Source: Patescibacteria group bacterium (lineage in GTDB: Bacteria > Patescibacteriota > Minisyncoccia > UBA6257 > HR35). Taken from it: a stretch of DNA of 64,000 nt. This document shows, piece after piece, positions 3,289 to 63,226 of the stretch (position 1 is the first letter of the stretch; every line of letters begins with the position of its first letter). The notes below the pieces were generated by a model. It worked only from the letters and a program-made list of their open reading frames with translations. It did no database searches and was not told the DNA's origin. Location: the NCBI GenBank assembly GCA_030549845.1, contig JAUQQN010000002.1, forward strand, positions 53,307 to 117,306, given 5' to 3'. The position numbers were made by a program, and so were the translations under genes.

Positions 3289-4554
3289 TTAAAATAAGGT
3301 TTTTAATTCTTTCTTTTCTAACTTTTCTTTCTTTTCTAATAATATTTTAACAACTCCATATTCTCCATCATAGCCAGGTTCAATATAAATTTCATTTTTG
3401 AAAAACTTATCTATACCATAAAAAACTTCATCAGGTACAATTTTCTTTATTTTTTCATAATCATTAGGACTCAAAAAGAAGTTAAATTCATTTCCATAAA
3501 TTTCTAAAATTTTAAAATAAACATCTAAAACCTTTTTTGATGTAGGATCAGAGTTTAAGGCTTCAGCTATTATTTCTGTAAGTGGAATAATATTTTTAAA
3601 AGGAGGCCTATTTGGAGGCATAAAGTTTTCTTCCCTGTCTGCTAGTTTTTCAACTCTACTTAAAACACCTATTGTTACAGGTTTTAAGCAAACAGGACAT
3701 ATATAATTGTTCTTTTTTGACTCTTTTGGAGAAAATCTTACTTTGCAATTTCTATGACCATCGTAATGATATTTACCTTCTTCAGGAAAAAACTCAATAG
3801 TCATTAAAATTTTATTTTTTTCATCAGGATCTTTTAAAGCTTTTAACAAACTAAAAAAAGAAGGTTCTTCTAACTCAAAAATTGTAGCTTCTCTTCCTAT
3901 TCTGTGTGAATATGGAGAATGTGAATCTGAAAAAGAAACAATTTGAAAATCATCTAGCTGAGAAAGTCTCCAATTCATTTTAGGATCACTTGAAAGACCG
4001 GTTTCTACTCCGTAGATATATTTTTTATATTCTCCAAATGCTTCATCAATTGAATCAAATCCTGACATTGAGCCAAACAAACTAAACCATGGAGTCCAAA
4101 TATGAGCAGGAATTATTATAGAATTTTCGTTAATATCTAGGGCTATTTTTATAACTTCTATGATATCTAATCCCAAAGTCGGCCTTCCATCCGAAGAAAG
4201 GTTTGTAAAAATCGAAATTTTTTTATTGAATTTTTCAACATCGCTTAAATATGGGAACATAACTAAATAATGGATTCTTCGCACAGCACCATGTTTAGAG
4301 TAAATAGAACTGATTTCACATGAAAGCAAAAAATATATTTCATCCTTTGAATTTTTTAATTTTAAAAATCCTTTTCCATTATCTTCAAGCTTTTCTTTTA
4401 TCTCTTTAAACCATAAAGGATGGGTAAAATCTCCTGTAGCTAAAAGATTTAATCCTTTATATTTTGCCCAATAATGTAAATTTTCTAAATCTAAATTTTT
4501 CGAACATGCTCTAGAATATTTAGAATGTAAATGCAAATCTGCATAAAATTTCAT
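3289..4554 (-). CDS. PHP-domain protein resembling endonuclease Q (TIGR00375-like)
   Basis: N-terminal PHP motif MKFYADLHLHSKYS and LLATGDFTHP. Internal Cys/His cluster CPVCLKPVTIGVLSRV...HYDGHRNCKV. The 421-aa length matches EndoQ-type proteins. Confidence 0.5.
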   Translation of the reverse strand: MKFYADLHLHSKYSRACSKNLDLENLHYWAKYKGLNLLATGDFTHPLWFKEIKEKLEDNGKGFLKLKNSKDEIYFLLSCEISSIYSKHGAVRRIHYLVMFPYLSDVEKFNKKISIFTNLSSDGRPTLGLDIIEVIKIALDINENSIIIPAHIWTPWFSLFGSMSGFDSIDEAFGEYKKYIYGVETGLSSDPKMNWRLSQLDDFQIVSFSDSHSPYSHRIGREATIFELEEPSFFSLLKALKDPDEKNKILMTIEFFPEEGKYHYDGHRNCKVRFSPKESKKNNYICPVCLKPVTIGVLSRVEKLADREENFMPPNRPPFKNIIPLTEIIAEALNSDPTSKKVLDVYFKILEIYGNEFNFFLSPNDYEKIKKIVPDEVFYGIDKFFKNEIYIEPGYDGEYGVVKILLEKKEKLEKKELKTLF

Positions 4555-4623
4555 TAAAAATAATTATAAGAGAAATTTATCTACATTTTAGCATAGTTGT
4601 TCCGAGGATTAAAACCTCTTAAT

Positions 4624-6096
4624 TTACTTTATATAATAAAGTCTAATAGAACATTTGCCACCTACATAAGCTTTTCTTGCTATTGCTGCATAATCAATAT
4701 AAAACTTATCTGAGCCTTCTAAGATAAATCTCATACCATCAAAATTCTTATAAATAACAAAATCATAACCCCAACCTCCTGCCCAATCTTCTCGGCCATA
4801 ATAATGTAGTGAATTAATCCCCCTCTTAAGATTTTTGAACTCTATGACATTGGATTCGAAACTTGAAGGAGGTTGAAGGTTACCTAATCTTTCTCTTGAA
4901 ACAATATATCCTGTCCAAAATCTTCCATATACTTTTCTATTCCAATTTCCCAGATTCTCGCTGGTTATGGTATCCCTTACAAAATAAGGAAATATTTGGT
5001 TAGCATATATAATGGAACCAGTCAAATTATCATCACCACTTTTACTAACTAAACCAACGCCTATAGCTAACTTATTAGGTATTAAAAATGCACATATACC
5101 CACTGTGCCATCTTCATATTTAACTTGTACTCCGATTATACTTTTGCTTATTAATGATTGGAATTCAGAAATACTTTCATATCCTACAGCTTCGTATCTT
5201 TCTTGCCATACCATATTTTTTGTAAAATCTTGAACAAAGTAATTGCTTAAACCCTTTTCAATAACTTTACCCTTAAGGCATACATAATCCTGTCTTTGAA
5301 GTTCTGGTATTTCTATATAAGCAATTAATGAGCAATCATCGCCTTGACTTTGAGCTATTTTTATATCCACATATCCTTTTGTCGCAACTTGTTCTGGCGG
5401 TGAGTTTTCAGTAGGAGTTTGAGCAAAAAGAGAAGCCAATATTGAGGTATAGACAGGTTCTGATTTTATTGGTTTAGCTTCTAAAGTATATAAATTACCT
5501 GAGGAAGAAAGCCTTAGATCATATTTCCCTGATGGTATAGGTAATGAAATAGTGGTATTTATTGTTTCAAAACCATTAGCGAACAAATCGTAGAGTTCAT
5601 CGGTTATTGGTGTTTTACCAGGATAATAGAAATATTTTTTGCCACTATTGTAATCATAACCAAAGTCTAATGAAGGCGTTCTTTCAAATATGTTAGTTTG
5701 TTGCCTTGTATAAGCTCTGAAGGATTTATGGCATATACCCCAGGAATTACATCCACCATCTATATCATATGCAACTTGGATATTTGAAGGAGCATTGGAC
5801 CATTGATAAGAATTAGGACAGTTAATATCATTTGAATTTATATCGCATGGCAATCTTGTAACTGTAGTAGCATACTGAAGGGTAGGTTTATTGGTATCTT
5901 CGATAATTTTATAGTGAGAAATATTAATTTTCAAAAACTTAAATCCTTCATTTTCAGTTTTAAATACTGTGTATTTTTGTTGGGTTTGTTGTGCTTTGAT
6001 TTGAGGAAGTGGGATTGTTAATATAAGTAGGGTTAAGAAAGAAAGTAAGATTCCTGTAAAGATTCCTATAAGTATTTGCTTTTTATTGTTTTGCAT
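4624..6096 (-). CDS. Secreted or membrane-anchored Cys-rich hypothetical protein; paralog of 55135-56085
   Basis: N-terminal signal anchor. The segment QQKYTVFKTENEGFKFL right after the anchor is nearly identical in the paralog (QQKYTTFKTENVGFKFL). Internal ATKGYVD motif. No enzymatic motifs. Confidence 0.5.
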   Translation of the reverse strand: MQNNKKQILIGIFTGILLSFLTLLILTIPLPQIKAQQTQQKYTVFKTENEGFKFLKINISHYKIIEDTNKPTLQYATTVTRLPCDINSNDINCPNSYQWSNAPSNIQVAYDIDGGCNSWGICHKSFRAYTRQQTNIFERTPSLDFGYDYNSGKKYFYYPGKTPITDELYDLFANGFETINTTISLPIPSGKYDLRLSSSGNLYTLEAKPIKSEPVYTSILASLFAQTPTENSPPEQVATKGYVDIKIAQSQGDDCSLIAYIEIPELQRQDYVCLKGKVIEKGLSNYFVQDFTKNMVWQERYEAVGYESISEFQSLISKSIIGVQVKYEDGTVGICAFLIPNKLAIGVGLVSKSGDDNLTGSIIYANQIFPYFVRDTITSENLGNWNRKVYGRFWTGYIVSRERLGNLQPPSSFESNVIEFKNLKRGINSLHYYGREDWAGGWGYDFVIYKNFDGMRFILEGSDKFYIDYAAIARKAYVGGKCSIRLYYIK

Positions 6097-21998: not shown

Positions 21999-22073
21999 TG
22001 GTGGGCGGGCCGGGCCTTGAACCCGGATCTCTCTCACTTTTAGAGAGCGCCTTCCCCTTTAAGCCACCCGCCC
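21999..22073 (-). tRNA. tRNA-like gene with an atypical anticodon loop; isotype unresolved
   Basis: Perfect 7-bp GC acceptor stem (GGGCGGG/CCCGCCC), D-arm with GG, T-arm CCGGG-TTCAAGG-CCCGG, discriminator A and a genomically encoded CCA. The anticodon stem CTCTC/GAGAG encloses the loop TAAAAGT, with A at position 33 and an AAA/AAG-type anticodon. Confidence 0.55.
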
Positions 22074-24090: not shown

Positions 24091-24879
24091 TCAGGTATGG
24101 GTTTTCAATAAATATAAACCTCCATAGATTCCTGATTTTTCCTGAAGTTTGCTTTTAAAAATTTTTGTTTTAAAGGGTAAAGTTTTTAAATTACTAAAAT
24201 TTACTTTTAACTCTTCAAAGTCTAAGCTTTTGATTAATGAACCACCAATAATAATTGCCTCTACTGACCAAAAAATAGCAACATTAATTAAAAACCCAGC
24301 GAAAATTTTATTAATATAGGACCAAAATTTTTTATCTTTAATTTCTTCTGGCTTTTTACCAGTAATTTTTTCTATTGATTTTCCTCCTATTAATTTTTCA
24401 ACTTCTATAAAATTAGAATTTAATAAAAACAAACTATGGCCTGGTTCAAAGCCGAAAAAATTCTCTTCAACTTTTTTATTTACAATTTTTACCCCACCCA
24501 CTCCACTACTTAGAGTAACATAACCCAAAATATTAAATCTTTTACCAATGCCATAAACAGCCTCTCCTAAACCTGCAAGTTCTGCATCATTTTTTAAAAT
24601 AACATCGCAATTAAATAAATTTTTAAAATCTTTAACAATATTTTTATTATTAAAATTAGGAAGGTTAGGGGCTTTAATTATTTTTTCATTTCTTATCATC
24701 CCAGCAAAACCAATAACTATTCTATTGAATCTTGTTTCTTTCAAGTTGTTTTTAAGTACTTGCAAGAAATCATTATAATTCTTAGGAGTTTCGATAATAA
24801 AAAATTTATCAATTTTATTTAAGTTTTTACTAATACCTATTTTAGTCGTAGTGGCTCCTATATCTAATAAAAGGTGCAT
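24091..24879 (-). CDS. ROK/BadF-type sugar kinase (glucokinase-like ASKHA ATPase)
   Basis: N-terminal LLDIGATTTKIGI phosphate-1 motif. GFAGMIRNEKIIKAPNLPNF. C-terminal IIGGSLIKS...GIYGGLYLL. Confidence 0.55.
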   Translation of the reverse strand: MHLLLDIGATTTKIGISKNLNKIDKFFIIETPKNYNDFLQVLKNNLKETRFNRIVIGFAGMIRNEKIIKAPNLPNFNNKNIVKDFKNLFNCDVILKNDAELAGLGEAVYGIGKRFNILGYVTLSSGVGGVKIVNKKVEENFFGFEPGHSLFLLNSNFIEVEKLIGGKSIEKITGKKPEEIKDKKFWSYINKIFAGFLINVAIFWSVEAIIIGGSLIKSLDFEELKVNFSNLKTLPFKTKIFKSKLQEKSGIYGGLYLLKTHT

Positions 24880-26381
24880 TATTCAATTTTAGTTTTTTCC
24901 TTCGATCTTGCAAATAAATAATACCACATTGCTATATTTAACAAAATCAAAATTATAACTAAAATCCACGGTGTTGAAATAATACTAAATAATCCTCCAG
25001 CAAAAGCAGCAAGTGGAGCAAATATATTTTCCTTTTTACTTACTTCAATAGTAACTGGAAAATCTTTTTTGGTCCCATTTATACCTGCTGTAATTATCCC
25101 ATAATATTCACCTTCTTCTGCATCACAAGGTACATCAATAGTCCAATTAAATGAATTTATATCATTAGGTAAAACTTCTATAACTCTTGCTTTTGGCTTA
25201 AACCATTTTTTAATCTCCCCACTTATTGTAAAAGATACTTTTCTTTTTTTGCTATTGTTATTAATAATAGTAATATTTATATTATCTTTCTTGCATATAT
25301 ATGTCTTCAAATAATCATCTATAGATATATCCAAATAAGAATTTTGCATTTCTTTTGTAACCAAAGTAGCGGCCGGAGTTGTTGGCTTAGTTACTGGAAC
25401 TCTGACAGTTTGGGTTATTGTTTTTGTGATTGTCTTTGTAATAAATTGCGTTCTTCCTACACTAAGCACAAGTTCTTTTGAAGAAGTAGCACCCTTATCA
25501 TCTACAACTGTAAGCTTTATATTATAAGTCCCTGAACTAAGGGCCCTTGAAAAAGATGGATTTCTTGAAACAATTTCATTATTTATTGACCATTCATAAA
25601 GAATTATTCTACCATCAGGATCATAAGAGCCAGCTGAAGAGAAGGTTACAATTGTTCCTGGTTTAATTAAGGTTGGAGAATAAGTTATATTAGCAATAGG
25701 TTTTTGATTTTGAGATGTTATAGTTGTCTGTTGAATTTCACGGGAAATTACATTTACACTACAATTTGTGGCTCTTGAAATACCATCTGAATAAACTGTT
25801 AAATAAACATAATAAGTACCTGGAGTATAAAACGTTTTTTGGCAAATAGATGAATTTCCAACACAATCTCCAGACCAGGAATATGAATAATATCCTGTTC
25901 CCCCAGATACGTTAGAATAGAAAGTAACTAAACTTCCTACATAAGCTGGGTTGGGTGCTGAATAGCAAGAAACACTTAAATCAGATTGCTGGGTTCCACA
26001 AGTAGTTGTAAAAGATCTAATTTCCCCATAATTTATTCCGGCGGAGTTTTTTGCTACTGCTCTATAATAGTATGTTGTACAAGGATTTAAATTAAATATT
26101 GTATAACAAAATCTATAAGGAGTATAAGTAACATTCAGGGTTTGAACGGGCGTAGTATTAGTTAAAGCAGTGGTTCTTCCCCATTCAAACCAAACCTGAA
26201 TATTTTGATCCCCTCCTGTATCAGTTATTTCACCAACTAAAGTAGCTTGAGTATCAGTATAGGTTGATCTGCTTGGACAAGCTTGCGCATTTACATCGTA
26301 TAATCCTAAAAACAAAACAAACAATGCAACTAACATTATTTTTAATTTGCTTTTTATAAATCTTTCTTTTTTTATTTGCAT
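24879..26381 (-). CDS. Secreted, C-terminally membrane-anchored protein with an FN3-like N-terminal domain and a PKD-like domain
   Basis: Signal peptide. Domain CPS...ATLVGEITDTGGDQNIQVWFEWG...PYRFC...CTTYYYRAVAKNSAGINYGEIRSFTT. PKD-like segment YDPDGRIILYEWSINN...YNIKLTVVDDKGATSS. C-terminal TM helix. Confidence 0.6.
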   Translation of the reverse strand: MQIKKERFIKSKLKIMLVALFVLFLGLYDVNAQACPSRSTYTDTQATLVGEITDTGGDQNIQVWFEWGRTTALTNTTPVQTLNVTYTPYRFCYTIFNLNPCTTYYYRAVAKNSAGINYGEIRSFTTTCGTQQSDLSVSCYSAPNPAYVGSLVTFYSNVSGGTGYYSYSWSGDCVGNSSICQKTFYTPGTYYVYLTVYSDGISRATNCSVNVISREIQQTTITSQNQKPIANITYSPTLIKPGTIVTFSSAGSYDPDGRIILYEWSINNEIVSRNPSFSRALSSGTYNIKLTVVDDKGATSSKELVLSVGRTQFITKTITKTITQTVRVPVTKPTTPAATLVTKEMQNSYLDISIDDYLKTYICKKDNINITIINNNSKKRKVSFTISGEIKKWFKPKARVIEVLPNDINSFNWTIDVPCDAEEGEYYGIITAGINGTKKDFPVTIEVSKKENIFAPLAAFAGGLFSIISTPWILVIILILLNIAMWYYLFARSKEKTKIE

Positions 26382-26746
26382 TTTGTCTTTATTGATCTAA
26401 TTTCCCCATAATTTATTCCGGCGGAGTTTTTTGCTACTGCTCTATAATAGTATGTTGTACATTTTTTTAATTTATTCACATTTATACAATATATTCCTGG
26501 TTTGCTTAATTTTATTGATTTTGTCTTAAACATTAAACTTGATGAAGAAGATCCGTACTCAAACCAACCTTCTACATATTTGTCATTTCCTAAACTATCA
26601 ACTTTTCCTACAAAAATTATATTATTTTTATTAGCAATAGTTCTCTGGGGACATTTTATTGAAATAGTATTCACCGCAAAAACCCTAGAAGCTAAAAATG
26701 TAAAGAATATTAAAATACTTATTAAAAGGATAAATAATTTCTTCAT
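26372..26746 (-). CDS. Secreted FN3-like paralog (124 aa)
   Basis: Signal peptide plus the same domain, ending ...CTTYYYRAVAKNSAGINYGEIRSIKTKCK. Shares a 68-bp identical DNA segment with the upstream paralog. Confidence 0.55.
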   Translation of the reverse strand: MKKLFILLISILIFFTFLASRVFAVNTISIKCPQRTIANKNNIIFVGKVDSLGNDKYVEGWFEYGSSSSSLMFKTKSIKLSKPGIYCINVNKLKKCTTYYYRAVAKNSAGINYGEIRSIKTKCK

Positions 26747-26796
26747 TTTAATCGTCTTTCTTTTTAATAATATTTTTCTCTATAAATAGTGTTTTT

Positions 26797-27489
26797 TTAT
26801 AATGTTTGAACTGCAGGTAAAGTAATAACAGCAGGCGGATTAGCTCTTACATCCACAGTTACAGAATCAGAAACAGATTGATTGTATCCAGAACAAGTGA
26901 TAGTAAATGTATATCTTCCAGAGCTTAAATTAGAAATTACTTGTGAACCAGAAACTGATTTACTACCACTCCAAGCTGAAACCCATGGACTACTTTGAGC
27001 TGAGCAGGATGAAACATCTCTAGATGTCCAAGAAAGTGTAACACTTTCTCCAGGTAATATTGTTATTGTACCATCAGTACCATTAACCTTTAAATCAACT
27101 TCAGGTCTTACACACAATGTTGTAAATGACATTATATCACCATAAGAAGTACCACCAGAGTTTTGGGCTACAGCTCTATAGTAATATGTTGAGCATGGGG
27201 TTAAATTACTAATAGAAGAACAAAATCTATAAGGAACATTATCAACTCTTAAATATTGCTTTGATGTACTTCTTCCTAGAGAACTGGTTTCCCCCCACTC
27301 AAACCATGCAGTTATATTTTTATCTCCTCCTGTATCATTAATTTGACCTACTAATGTAGCTGCAGTGTGTGTGAATGTTGTATTAGAAGGACAAGAAGAT
27401 TGAGCAAAAGATTTGAGATTCAAACTAAAACCTAAACCTAATAGAGCAATAAGCAAAATACCTAAAGATATTACTTTTCCTCTATTCAT
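26797..27489 (-). CDS. Secreted FN3-like paralog (230 aa)
   Basis: Signal peptide plus CPSNTTFTHTAATLVGQINDTGGDKNITAWFEWGETSSL...CSTYYYRAVAQNSGGTSYGDIMSFTT, followed by a second beta-rich domain. Confidence 0.55.
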   Translation of the reverse strand: MNRGKVISLGILLIALLGLGFSLNLKSFAQSSCPSNTTFTHTAATLVGQINDTGGDKNITAWFEWGETSSLGRSTSKQYLRVDNVPYRFCSSISNLTPCSTYYYRAVAQNSGGTSYGDIMSFTTLCVRPEVDLKVNGTDGTITILPGESVTLSWTSRDVSSCSAQSSPWVSAWSGSKSVSGSQVISNLSSGRYTFTITCSGYNQSVSDSVTVDVRANPPAVITLPAVQTL

Positions 27490-27660
27490 TTTTTGTACTT
27501 TTAGAGATTAATTAAGACCTTTTACTAAAAATAACCCAAGCTTCTAATTAATTTTCGACTTATTAATAAATGTCATTAAATTATAAAATTTTTCTGCCCT
27601 ATAGTCAAGACCCTTAGTAAAGAACAAAATTATTTAAAAAAATACAATTTTTAAATCTTT

Positions 27661-35110: not shown

Positions 35111-35464
35111 AAAACTGAAATAGAAAGGGAGATTAGCTCTTTACAGGATTCACTAAAGAGATTGTTTGAAACAGATATTGATTACTTAGATTTAGGTGTT
35201 AATCTTTTAGAACTATGTAAAAAAGCAAGGTTTTTATATGAAAATGCAACTATTGAAGAAAAACGAGAATTAATAAATTTAGCTTTTCAAAAAATTTTGA
35301 TAAAAGATAAAACATTTATTTTCGAATATTCTCCTTGGTTCGCAATTTTACACAAACACTCCGGATTAATTAAAGAAATTTGCGAACTCGAAAAAAGCAA
35401 GAATTTAAAAGAAGAAAATGAAATTTTAGAGAAAGTTTATCCTAAAATGCTCTACCTATATTAA
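35111..35464 (+). pseudogene. C-terminal fragment of a large serine recombinase (integrase); N-terminal catalytic domains missing
   Basis: The in-frame stretch after the stop at 35108 reads KTEIEREISSLQDSLKRLFETDIDYLDLGVNLLELCKKARFLYENATIEEKRELINLAFQKILIKDKTFIFEY, which matches the coiled-coil plus ...FDNSTFDEKR.L...I.KI.L....I.I.W tail of large serine recombinases. No upstream resolvase or recombinase domain ORF exists in 34743-35110. A TTG start was used by the ORF track. Confidence 0.5.
35366..35407 (+). repeat. Direct repeat copy A (42 bp, 1 mismatch vs 39713-39754)
   Basis: ttaattaaagaaatttgcgaactcgaaaaaagcaagaattta inside the recombinase fragment. A second shorter repeat pair lies at 35659-35684 and 39651-39677. 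Confidence 0.8.
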
Positions 35465-39454: not shown

Positions 39455-39712
39455 AAGTTAGCGTAATAAAAATAAAAAACTTGTCATTGCAAAACAACAA
39501 ATCTGAAGATAGGTTTTCTCGAAAAAACACCATTTTAAAATGCTAAAGTCAATGACAATTCTTCTAAAACCCCAAGTTTCAGACGTAGGCTTAATGCAGA
39601 GTCTCTGCCTCCGTTCTTGAAAATAAAATAAGGGCGAGGGAATTAGCTGGCTTTCAATCTTACATTAAGTTCGTTGGAAATTTGATAACAAACCCATTAT
39701 TGCATTTTAGGT

Positions 39713-39754
39713 TAATTAAAGAAATTTGCGAACTCGAAAAAAGTAAGAATTTAT
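39713..39754 (+). repeat. Direct repeat copy B (42 bp)
   Basis: ttaattaaagaaatttgcgaactcgaaaaaagtaagaattta; it lies in a short remnant ORF ending ...RLIKEICELEKSKNLSEF. Confidence 0.8.
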
Positions 39755-55134: not shown

Positions 55135-56085
55135 TCACTGTCCAAAGACCATAAAATTAATTCGAACATTTTTTAACTCAGATGAACATCTCCAAGAAAA
55201 GCTTACCTTAAAATGTGAAGGGTAATTATTTAACCTGCTTCCAAAAACCTCTATGTTATCACATGGATTTCTATCAACAAGACCATTCGTAGTAATACCT
55301 CCTAAAGCGGTGTATACTCCTTTTATTTTATTTATCACCTGATATTCAGAAGATAAATTATAACCTTCAACTAAATTTATTCCATCACTGCAACCTAACC
55401 GTCCACATATTTTAGCTTCAATAATATCAAATCTAGGTGCAGTTTGTATTTTTACGTCTAAAGCATAACCATAATCATAGTATCTGGGAGGTAAATTTTT
55501 TAGCAACAGATGCCCTGTTAGTATTTTTGGTATTTTTGATTCTGTATATTCATCTACATACTGTTTAGTATATTCATCTACATACTGTTTAGTAACTAAT
55601 TCGTTAGGCTCAGTAGGAGTTGCAGAAGGATTAATTAATACACGTATAGGAGCAATAGAATTCGATTGAGTTAATGCACCAAAGTAAATTATTCCATCAC
55701 AAAGCAGCGGATTTTGCCTACAAAGCGTTGGTGAAATTGTTGGCGATAATTCTTTGGGGGGAATTATTCCTATATATGAAAATTGATTATTTTGAAGTTT
55801 ACCAGAATAAATCCATGTACCACTTGTTGCGCTTCTTATAGCTGTTTCAACATAATCATTAATTCTACTTTTTAATACAAAAGCTGGACCGAAATCGTCA
55901 TAAGCAAGGTAACCACGTCCTAAATTAAAGAATAAAAATTTAAAACCAACATTTTCTGTTTTAAAGGTTGTATACTTTTGTTGGGTCTGGCTGCTTAATA
56001 TAGGGGCATTTAACATAAAAGCAAAAAATATAGATAAACAAATTCCCCAGGCTATTCCTTTGTAAAAGTATTTATTATTTTTCAT
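55135..56085 (-). CDS. Secreted Cys-rich hypothetical protein; paralog of 4624-6096, with an in-frame 24-bp tandem duplication
   Basis: Signal anchor then QTQQKYTTFKTENVGFKFL. VTKQYVDEYTKQYVDEYT is encoded by a perfect 2x24-bp tandem repeat at 55545-55592. Confidence 0.5.
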   Translation of the reverse strand: MKNNKYFYKGIAWGICLSIFFAFMLNAPILSSQTQQKYTTFKTENVGFKFLFFNLGRGYLAYDDFGPAFVLKSRINDYVETAIRSATSGTWIYSGKLQNNQFSYIGIIPPKELSPTISPTLCRQNPLLCDGIIYFGALTQSNSIAPIRVLINPSATPTEPNELVTKQYVDEYTKQYVDEYTESKIPKILTGHLLLKNLPPRYYDYGYALDVKIQTAPRFDIIEAKICGRLGCSDGINLVEGYNLSSEYQVINKIKGVYTALGGITTNGLVDRNPCDNIEVFGSRLNNYPSHFKVSFSWRCSSELKNVRINFMVFGQ

Positions 56086-63154: not shown

Positions 63155-63226
63155 TGCCTGGGGAGGGAATCGAACCCCCGACGCCGGGCTCTTCAGGCCC
63201 GCGCTCTACCACTGAGCTACCCAGGC
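63155..63226 (-). tRNA. tRNA-Phe (anticodon GAA)
   Basis: 72 nt. Acceptor GCCTGGG/CCCAGGC with A73. Anticodon loop CTGAAGA. T-loop TTCGATT. Confidence 0.8.

Follow-up and report, generated by a model that had tools for sequence, protein, structure and literature searches.

Probable recurrent short-tract gene conversion in a conserved three-gene operon of predicted secreted FN3-type proteins of Patescibacteria

The stretch of Patescibacteria DNA analyzed here (contig JAUQQN010000002.1; 64,000 nucleotides, hereafter the window) contains, within the outer coordinates 24879-27489, three adjacent open reading frames (ORFs) on the minus strand which encode predicted secreted proteins of 500, 124, and 230 amino acids, here termed A, B, and C. 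Within the region for the common N-terminal domain, an exact repeat of 68 nt links gene A to gene B. We conclude that this identity very probably results from short-tract intrachromosomal gene conversion and that it represents one case of a recurrent, patchy concerted evolution in the C-B-A operon. An earlier note on this DNA had described three adjacent secreted FN3-like paralogues with a common N-terminal domain and had proposed recent gene conversion or recombination to account for the identity. The former description agrees with the ORFs, the leader sequences, and the structural analysis by AlphaFold2 (AF2) and Foldseek, and the latter proposal was borne out by the comparison of paralogues with orthologues presented below.

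The 68-nt repeat (TGTACAACATACTATTATAGAGCAGTAGCAAAAAACTCCGCCGGAATAAATTATGGGGAAATTAGATC on the coding strand) encodes the same peptide, CTTYYYRAVAKNSAGINYGEIRS, in both genes. According to the ORF coordinates, the two copies are direct repeats in the same codon phase with a start-to-start distance of 380 nt, and they constitute the longest exact repeat of the window. The exact identity noticed earlier was confirmed, but the positions needed correction: the A copy had been placed at 26053-26120, 39 nt off, and the copy in the 124-amino acid paralogue at 26393-26460, 1 nt off (corrected positions in Table 1). Identity drops immediately on either side of the repeat, from 68/69 nt inside the tract to 97/204 nt (approximately 48%) in the flanks, which is close to background for a genome of 28% GC. 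At the protein level, 42 of 91 residues of the domain are identical between A and B (19 of 68 outside the tract) and 59 of 94 between A and C. The consensus motif proposed earlier for the whole family thus describes A and C but not B, which is much more diverged. A tblastn search of the window revealed no further copies of the shared domain.

The identity of the two copies was compared with what chance and protein conservation would produce. All 22 codons that are fully contained in the repeat are identical between A and B, whereas about 11 of 22 would be expected (P = 1.3e-7) if the same peptide were encoded with the window's own codon usage. Permutation of the aligned A-B sites (100,000 times) gave a longest run of 29 nt, and none of the permutations reached the observed 68 nt. 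In the same segment, A and C have 16 of 23 residues in common but use an identical codon at only 6 of these 16. The codon and permutation results indicated that the A-B identity exceeds both chance and the conservation of the protein.

For every A, B, and C gene of the window and of related loci (designated L001-L012), the N-terminal portion was then compared in a codon alignment. Upstream of the tract, the genes of the window, L003, L004, and L005 grouped strictly by orthologue, with nucleotide identities of 67-76% among A genes, 61-72% among B genes, and 69-84% among C genes, as compared to 45-54% between A and B. Within the 69-nt segment this relationship was reversed in the window and L003: A and B differed at one position in the window and at four in L003, whereas the two A genes differed from each other at 11 positions and the two B genes at 12. 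Paralogues of one genome are therefore closer to each other in the tract than orthologues are, which is the signature of gene conversion. L003, a 65%-identical relative, carries its own exact A-B tract of 76 nt at the same place but with a different sequence. Since the A-B pairs of the window and L003 are alike within each genome but 11-12 differences apart between genomes, homogenisation must have gone on independently in each lineage since their separation. Had there been just one conversion in the common ancestor, the A-B differences in each genome would be about as large as the A-A differences between genomes. In L004 and L005, A and B differed at 24 and 28 positions of the segment, respectively, and no long exact runs between paralogues were found in these two loci. 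Other features typical of gene conversion were also observed, namely the identity at synonymous sites, a long run with abrupt boundaries, and independent recurrence in related lineages.

Exact runs between A and C were found in other loci, where the longest measured 53 nt in L001, 225 nt in L011, 450 nt in L008, and 470 nt in L012. The conversion partners are thus A and B in the clade of the window and A and C in the other clade. The loci L001 (4924-7512) and L008 (3333-5919) belong to close relatives, with 96% nucleotide identity in A and 98% in B, but only 84% in C. The C gene of L008 is 98% identical to its own A gene over 505 nt, compared to 80% in L001. The low identity of the two C genes is explained by an overwriting of the L008 C gene with sequence from its own A gene, and this very recent A-to-C overwrite, which occurred in L008 after its separation from L001, stands out as the clearest individual case of conversion among all members of the family.

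As the window derives from an assembly of an uncultured organism, and as the k-mers in common use are about as long as 68 nt or longer, an exact repeat of this kind might have arisen if diverged paralogues in the metagenome had been collapsed, joined as chimeras, or polished to a consensus. A sister strain with 99.2% identity (98% in protein A), found by a look-up of protein clusters, was represented by three contigs that differ in sample and assembler (L030, JGI; L031, ENA/megahit; L032, JGI). All three carry the identical 68-nt repeat with identical boundaries. Over the 2611 nt of C-B-A the three contigs were collinear with the window and showed the same 20 differing positions, none of them in either repeat copy, and L030 differed from the window by 51 substitutions and no indel over 5057 nt. 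For C, B, and A, the two strains diverged by 0.43%, 0.80%, and 0.86%, respectively, within the 0.25% to 1.27% of neighbouring genes. The recovery of the same repeat in independent assemblies shows that it is not an assembly artefact, the outcome which the earlier note had named as a refutation, and collinearity together with the neighbour-like divergence shows that the locus is neither mis-assembled nor unusually variable. Moreover, the homologous 76-nt tract of L003 has a different sequence and comes from yet another assembly, and both copies in the window lie in frame inside intact ORFs. An origin in assembly or binning is thus largely refuted already and we consider it extremely unlikely.

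Two further explanations, selection without recombination and a duplication driven by a mobile element, were rejected as well. Selection could act on the nucleotide sequence itself, for example if the stretch served in regulation as a DNA site, or as an RNA element, that is required within A and again directly before the start of A, and the position of the B copy, which ends 13 nt upstream of the A start codon in the translation-initiation region of A, would suit such a role. However, L003 differs from the window at 11 of 69 positions and yet matches its own partner, A and B differ at 24/69 and 28/69 positions in L004 and L005, the two copies are direct repeats that cannot pair with each other, and no Rfam family matched in the region. 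A functional element at the nucleotide level was rejected because of this lineage-specific sequence and the lack of an Rfam match, and is highly improbable. Diversity-generating retroelements (DGRs), which consist of a template and a variable repeat, are common in Patescibacteria and target surface proteins with Ig-like and lectin folds, which would speak for a DGR, or for another duplication driven by a mobile element, as a candidate. In a DGR, template and variable repeat differ at adenines, whereas the two copies described here have no mismatch and are both coding, in conserved paralogues. Neither a reverse transcriptase nor an integrase was found among the neighbouring genes scanned, and the neighbourhood is a stable housekeeping one with rpoA, S4, and tRNAs. 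Given an exact repeat and the lack of these enzymes among the neighbours, this candidate was rejected as well; its probability is practically negligible.

Another rival is a programmed variation of the cell surface, in which B and perhaps C would serve as donor cassettes and recombination at the repeat would swap or fuse the halves of the A N-domain, so that the population would become heterogeneous. The two direct repeats lie 380 nt apart in the same phase, so that a deletion between them would create an in-frame B(1-95)-A(101-500) chimera; the proteins are of a surface type in a probably host-attached bacterium; and conversion is demonstrably active in the family. On the other hand, A, B, and C are complete genes with their own starts and leaders and have orthologues in at least 13 loci. 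Only three copies exist, and no silent, truncated, or promoterless donors were found among them. The tract corresponds to the conserved structural core of the domain and not to a variable exposed loop. The four assemblies of the two strains are collinear without an indel over 5 kb, their divergence resembles that of the neighbouring genes, and neither repeat copy contains a SNP between these close strains. No recombinase or reverse transcriptase is encoded in adjacent genes, and assembled metagenome contigs scanned for the 68-mer yielded only the normal two-copy contig and no deletion or duplication recombinants. The suggestion of the earlier note that the repeat is a substrate for surface-protein variation is therefore not supported by the complete and conserved genes, the conserved-core tract, and the collinear strains, and we regard such a system as very unlikely.

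The relatives of the window that carry the trio are metagenome-assembled genomes (MAGs) labelled Patescibacteria, Paceibacterota, Pacebacteria, or Parcubacteria. Full-length orthologues of A were found in 13 protein clusters with 45-66% identity, and those of B in about 20 clusters; database look-ups returned no identical protein records for A or B. The order C (218-237 amino acids), B (124-139 amino acids), and A (467-506 amino acids) was found in every readable locus among L001-L012, and this order, the gene sizes, and the overlap of B with A are kept in at least 13 loci. Such synteny means that the trio does not consist of recent duplicates. C-B-A is an old, vertically inherited operon of Patescibacteria (Paceibacterota-type). 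Beyond the trio, this FN3-type domain is found repeated in tandem within large proteins from MAGs that bear the labels Yonathbacteria, Nomurabacteria, and Saccharibacteria. One locus, L010 (JAWBTN010000099.1), is labelled Candidatus Aenigmatarchaeota archaeon, yet in A and B it shows 97-98% nucleotide identity to the Patescibacteria MAG L009 (JAUQOT010000017.1); judged by this similarity, L010 is probably a bacterial contig that was wrongly binned into an archaeal MAG. A literature search found no work specific to gene conversion or to FN3/PKD surface proteins in Patescibacteria or the candidate phyla radiation.

All three proteins start with a leader of basic and hydrophobic residues, for which an N-terminal helix is predicted and which is followed by an Ala-rich candidate cleavage region directly before the first invariant cysteine. 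The shared N-domain contains four such cysteines (C35, C92, C101, and C128 in A). It stays below the cut-off of every Pfam model: Pur_ac_phosph_N scored best with 20-23 bits (cut-off 30), and of the curated FN3 family models FN3_DSCAM reached 15-16 bits (cut-off 39) and PF00041 gave no match. The AF2 model of B, built with 19 orthologues, had a predicted local distance difference test score (pLDDT) of 88 overall and of 94-97 in the domain. Searching the PDB with this model by Foldseek revealed FN3 domains almost exclusively among the top 50 matches, with E values of 2e-4 to 5e-3 and target-normalised template modelling scores of up to 0.67. According to the model, the designation FN3-like, given earlier from the sequence, is correct at the fold level. 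In the B model, the converted tract comprises the F strand (TYYYRAVAKN, with the YYYRA motif), the hairpin after it, and the first residues of the last strand, and in each of the paralogues no other part of the domain is as conserved.

The PKD domain and the C-terminal anchor that had been assigned to the largest member were both recovered. Pfam places PKD at amino acids 225-303 of A (PF00801, 49.6 bits, cut-off 23.5, 4e-13; PF18911, 49 bits, cut-off 27), and the AF2 model of A, with per-domain pLDDT values of 80-92, shows four beta-sandwiches, a disordered Thr/Pro-rich linker, and a C-terminal transmembrane helix (amino acids 469-497) followed by a short basic tail. A Foldseek search with the whole A protein gave generic strings of Ig, FN3, and macroglobulin domains and no specific functional relative, and no sorting-signal family of the sortase or CTERM type was detected in the NCBIfam scan of A, B, and C. 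The domain of protein C was matched by a hidden Markov model at 3e-53, and C orthologues of 218-237 amino acids occupy the same position in L001, L002, L004, L005, L007, L008, and L010-L012. B is the most diverged of the three paralogues. Two features of the protein ends were noticed in addition. The C orthologues all end at the stop codon in a conserved tail PPxVITLPxVxTL (window 26797-26838, where the tail is also given as PPAVITLPAVQTL; L001 4924-5592; L002 4826-5506), and in L002 an unannotated 256-amino acid protein encoded upstream (4039-4809) ends in the same motif, PPVVITLPPVITI. To judge from its sequence, this tail may serve as a short C-terminal motif for recognition or strand donation, although it matches none of the known sorting-signal models. 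Most B proteins outside the clade of the window (e.g., L001 5606-6016) have a low-complexity C-terminal extension of about 15 amino acids ending in W[IV][IV]F, and those of the window and its closest relatives stop directly after the domain (TKCK), where the gene overlaps the start of A.

These observations can be combined into a tentative model. The conversion would proceed by non-reciprocal homologous recombination, presumably of the RecA type, between the copies 380 nt apart, and would be confined to the only segment, the F strand and hairpin, in which the diverged paralogues stay similar enough to pair. Once homogenised, the tract would supply the perfect identity for further events and could thus become a self-sustaining "conversion island". 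Its edges are probably kept sharp by the diverged flanks and by selection for A- and B-specific residues. The flanks of B carry conserved residues specific to this paralogue, e.g., FVGK..LG.D..V.VWFEYG and SIKT.C, so longer tracts are probably selected against. A would be anchored in the membrane by its C-terminal helix, B would be a free single-domain protein apparently coupled to A in translation, and C a secreted protein with two domains, the N-domain of all three adopting a disulfide-type (four-cysteine) FN3 fold. A putative A/B/C complex might have a role at the cell surface or in adhesion.

Several points weigh against gene conversion in this form. A tract of 68 nt with non-homologous flanks is short for a RecA-dependent process, the conversion island and the selection on its edges are steps that we infer, and the signal peptides are predictions from the sequence and the modelled N-terminal helices. 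Furthermore, the tract combines a Lys of the B type (AVAKNS) with an Arg of the clade's A type (EIRS), and most B orthologues are already near this peptide. The mixture of residues hints at exchanges in both directions, and the diagnostic residues do not fix the direction of the transfer because the consensus peptide of the B family is almost the same as the tract. A far-reaching extension would be that C-B-A forms a hetero-oligomeric surface apparatus specific to a Paceibacterota lineage, whose subunits touch each other or a common partner through their FN3 tips and are kept matched by conversion, or that crossover at the 68-nt repeat generates in-frame B-A chimeras at low frequency and so switches the A tip in an episymbiont; we consider this extension unlikely.

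The features of the locus are listed in Table 1. Each of the three genes has its own ATG start codon and leader. The overlap of the B stop with the A start measures 10 nt in the window, L003, L004, and L005 and 16 nt in L001, L007, and L008, an arrangement more suggestive of coupled translation than of a silent cassette. The candidate promoter was found in a scan for promoters and terminators in which the total number of sites in the region was not above chance.

Table 1. Features of the C-B-A locus and the adjacent downstream gene (positions refer to the window)
Feature	Position	Strand	Description
Candidate operon promoter	27580..27608	-	Sigma-70-like TTGACT-17-TATAAT, 11/12, ~90 nt upstream of C; consensus match only
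Gene C	26797..27489	-	ORF; 230-amino acid predicted secreted protein, first of the C-B-A trio
Gene C, parts			Signal-like leader; FN3-fold N-domain, amino acids ~32-127; second beta-rich domain; C-terminal tail NPPAVITLPAVQTL
Gene B	26372..26746	-	ORF; 124-amino acid predicted secreted protein, single FN3 domain
Repeat copy 2	26394..26461	-	In B, codons C96-S118; ends 13 nt upstream of A ATG
B stop/A start overlap	26372..26381	-	10 nt, AAATGCAAATAA; from ORF coordinates and sequence
Gene A	24879..26381	-	ORF; 500-amino acid predicted type-I membrane-anchored protein
Gene A, leader and N-domain	25998-26282 (N-domain)		Leader; FN3-fold N-domain, amino acids 34-128
Repeat copy 1	26014..26081	-	In A, codons C101-S123; exact-match extension, repeat finder family D1
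Gene A, central domains			PKD-like domain, amino acids 134-213; PKD domain, amino acids 225-308; low-confidence Thr/Pro-rich linker; fourth beta-sandwich, amino acids 349-448
Gene A, anchor	24891-24977		Transmembrane helix, amino acids 469-497
ROK-family gene	24091..24879	-	ORF; Pfam ROK match 1e-23; directly downstream of A

At the downstream end of the trio (24877-24881), the ATG of the ROK-family gene (glucokinase/regulator type) has one base in common with the A stop codon, of which it takes the last base, and the same junction is present in L004 (3287) and L005 (2647). From this arrangement, the ROK gene is probably co-transcribed with C-B-A in the clade of the window, and its translation, too, looks linked to that of the surface-protein operon. 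Relatives from the other clade have in its position a convergently oriented phosphoglycerate mutase gene. The neighbourhood is of a housekeeping character (rpoA, S4, tRNAs, a methyltransferase, and a patatin). The gene families scanned at 19.3-34.7 kb, a part of the window, comprised ROK, methyltransferase, patatin, PGA_cap, DUF3160, RpoA, and S4 as well as two without a Pfam match; no recombinase, reverse transcriptase, or integrase was found among these genes neighbouring the trio.

Other observations were made elsewhere in the window. At 21999-22073 on the minus strand, beside tRNA-Ala and tRNA-Pro, ARAGORN predicted a tRNA-Phe with the unusual anticodon AAA, whose Rfam tRNA score of 43.9 bits is the lowest in the window; a normal tRNA-Phe(GAA) is located at 63155-63226. 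An exact direct repeat of 32 nt (35366-35397 and 39712-39743), or of approximately 42 nt with one mismatch (TTAATTAAAGAAATTTGCGAACTCGAAAAAAG), brackets a segment of 4.3 kb that encodes an 825-amino acid DUF2341/Laminin_G_3 protein and a GH3 glycosidase, and its first copy sits within a 100-amino acid ORF without a family match. From the sequence, this pair could reflect either a target duplicated upon insertion or the duplication of a gene end. Finally, a 27-nt stretch at 55544-55594, GTATATTCATCTACATACTGTTTAGTA, is repeated exactly 24 nt downstream so that the copies overlap by 3 nt, within a minus-strand ORF (55135-56085).

The C-B-A operon provides a clear example of recurrent short-tract gene conversion in a Patescibacteria lineage with reduced genomes. 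The recurrence indicates that homologous recombination between paralogues is active in this lineage. The analysis also defines a conserved, uncharacterised three-gene operon of predicted exported FN3/PKD proteins, which is a reasonable candidate for functions in the cell envelope or in host attachment; next to nothing is known of the surface biology of these organisms. Since paralogues become homogenised within a genome, phylogenetic trees of this domain will be misleading, and short-read assemblers and binning tools should expect a repeat of this kind. The process is real but fairly ordinary and reveals no new mechanism: it is a known one, interlocus gene conversion or concerted evolution, in an uncharacterised protein family of Patescibacteria.

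Several known systems resemble C-B-A in part. The cassette systems of antigenic variation, Neisseria pilE/pilS, Borrelia vlsE, and Treponema tprK, have one expression site and many silent truncated donors, with tracts located in hypervariable regions and rapid variation within a strain. As in C-B-A, short tracts pass non-reciprocally from one homologous surface-protein sequence to another; however, C-B-A lacks their silent donors, hypervariable-region tracts, and rapid variation. In Helicobacter pylori, segmental conversion among babA/babB, sabA/sabB, and hom creates mosaic genes with identical blocks; these outer-membrane protein loci are dispersed, and the exchange alters the expression and specificity of adhesins and varies among isolates. 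The likeness is that paralogues of surface proteins trade segments by intragenomic recombination, whereas A, B, and C are adjacent in one operon, their exchanged block is the conserved core, and close strains are invariant. With respect to protein architecture, the trio resembles bacterial FN3/PKD "beads-on-a-string" surface proteins in its leader, serial beta-sandwiches (FN3 fold, PKD), and C-terminal membrane anchor. It differs from them in an N-domain that has four invariant cysteines, lies below every Pfam cut-off, and is shared by the products of three separate genes whose order in the operon is fixed.

Concerted evolution by gene conversion is well known for tufA/tufB and for rRNA operons. 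Among protein-coding paralogues of prokaryotes, a phylogenomic survey found recurrent concerted evolution to be rare and catalogued 26 gene pairs, the converted paralogues often belonging to the same complex or pathway (PMC6053082). Compared with the tuf genes, the rRNA operons, and the pairs of that survey, the tracts in C-B-A are short and patchy (68 nt in the window), the partner pairs change by lineage (A-B or A-C), and only a part of a domain is affected, in proteins of an uncharacterised family that are otherwise functionally diverged. Nevertheless, C-B-A and these established cases agree in that same-genome paralogues are closer to each other than orthologues are over defined tracts, and in that this occurs recurrently in separate lineages.

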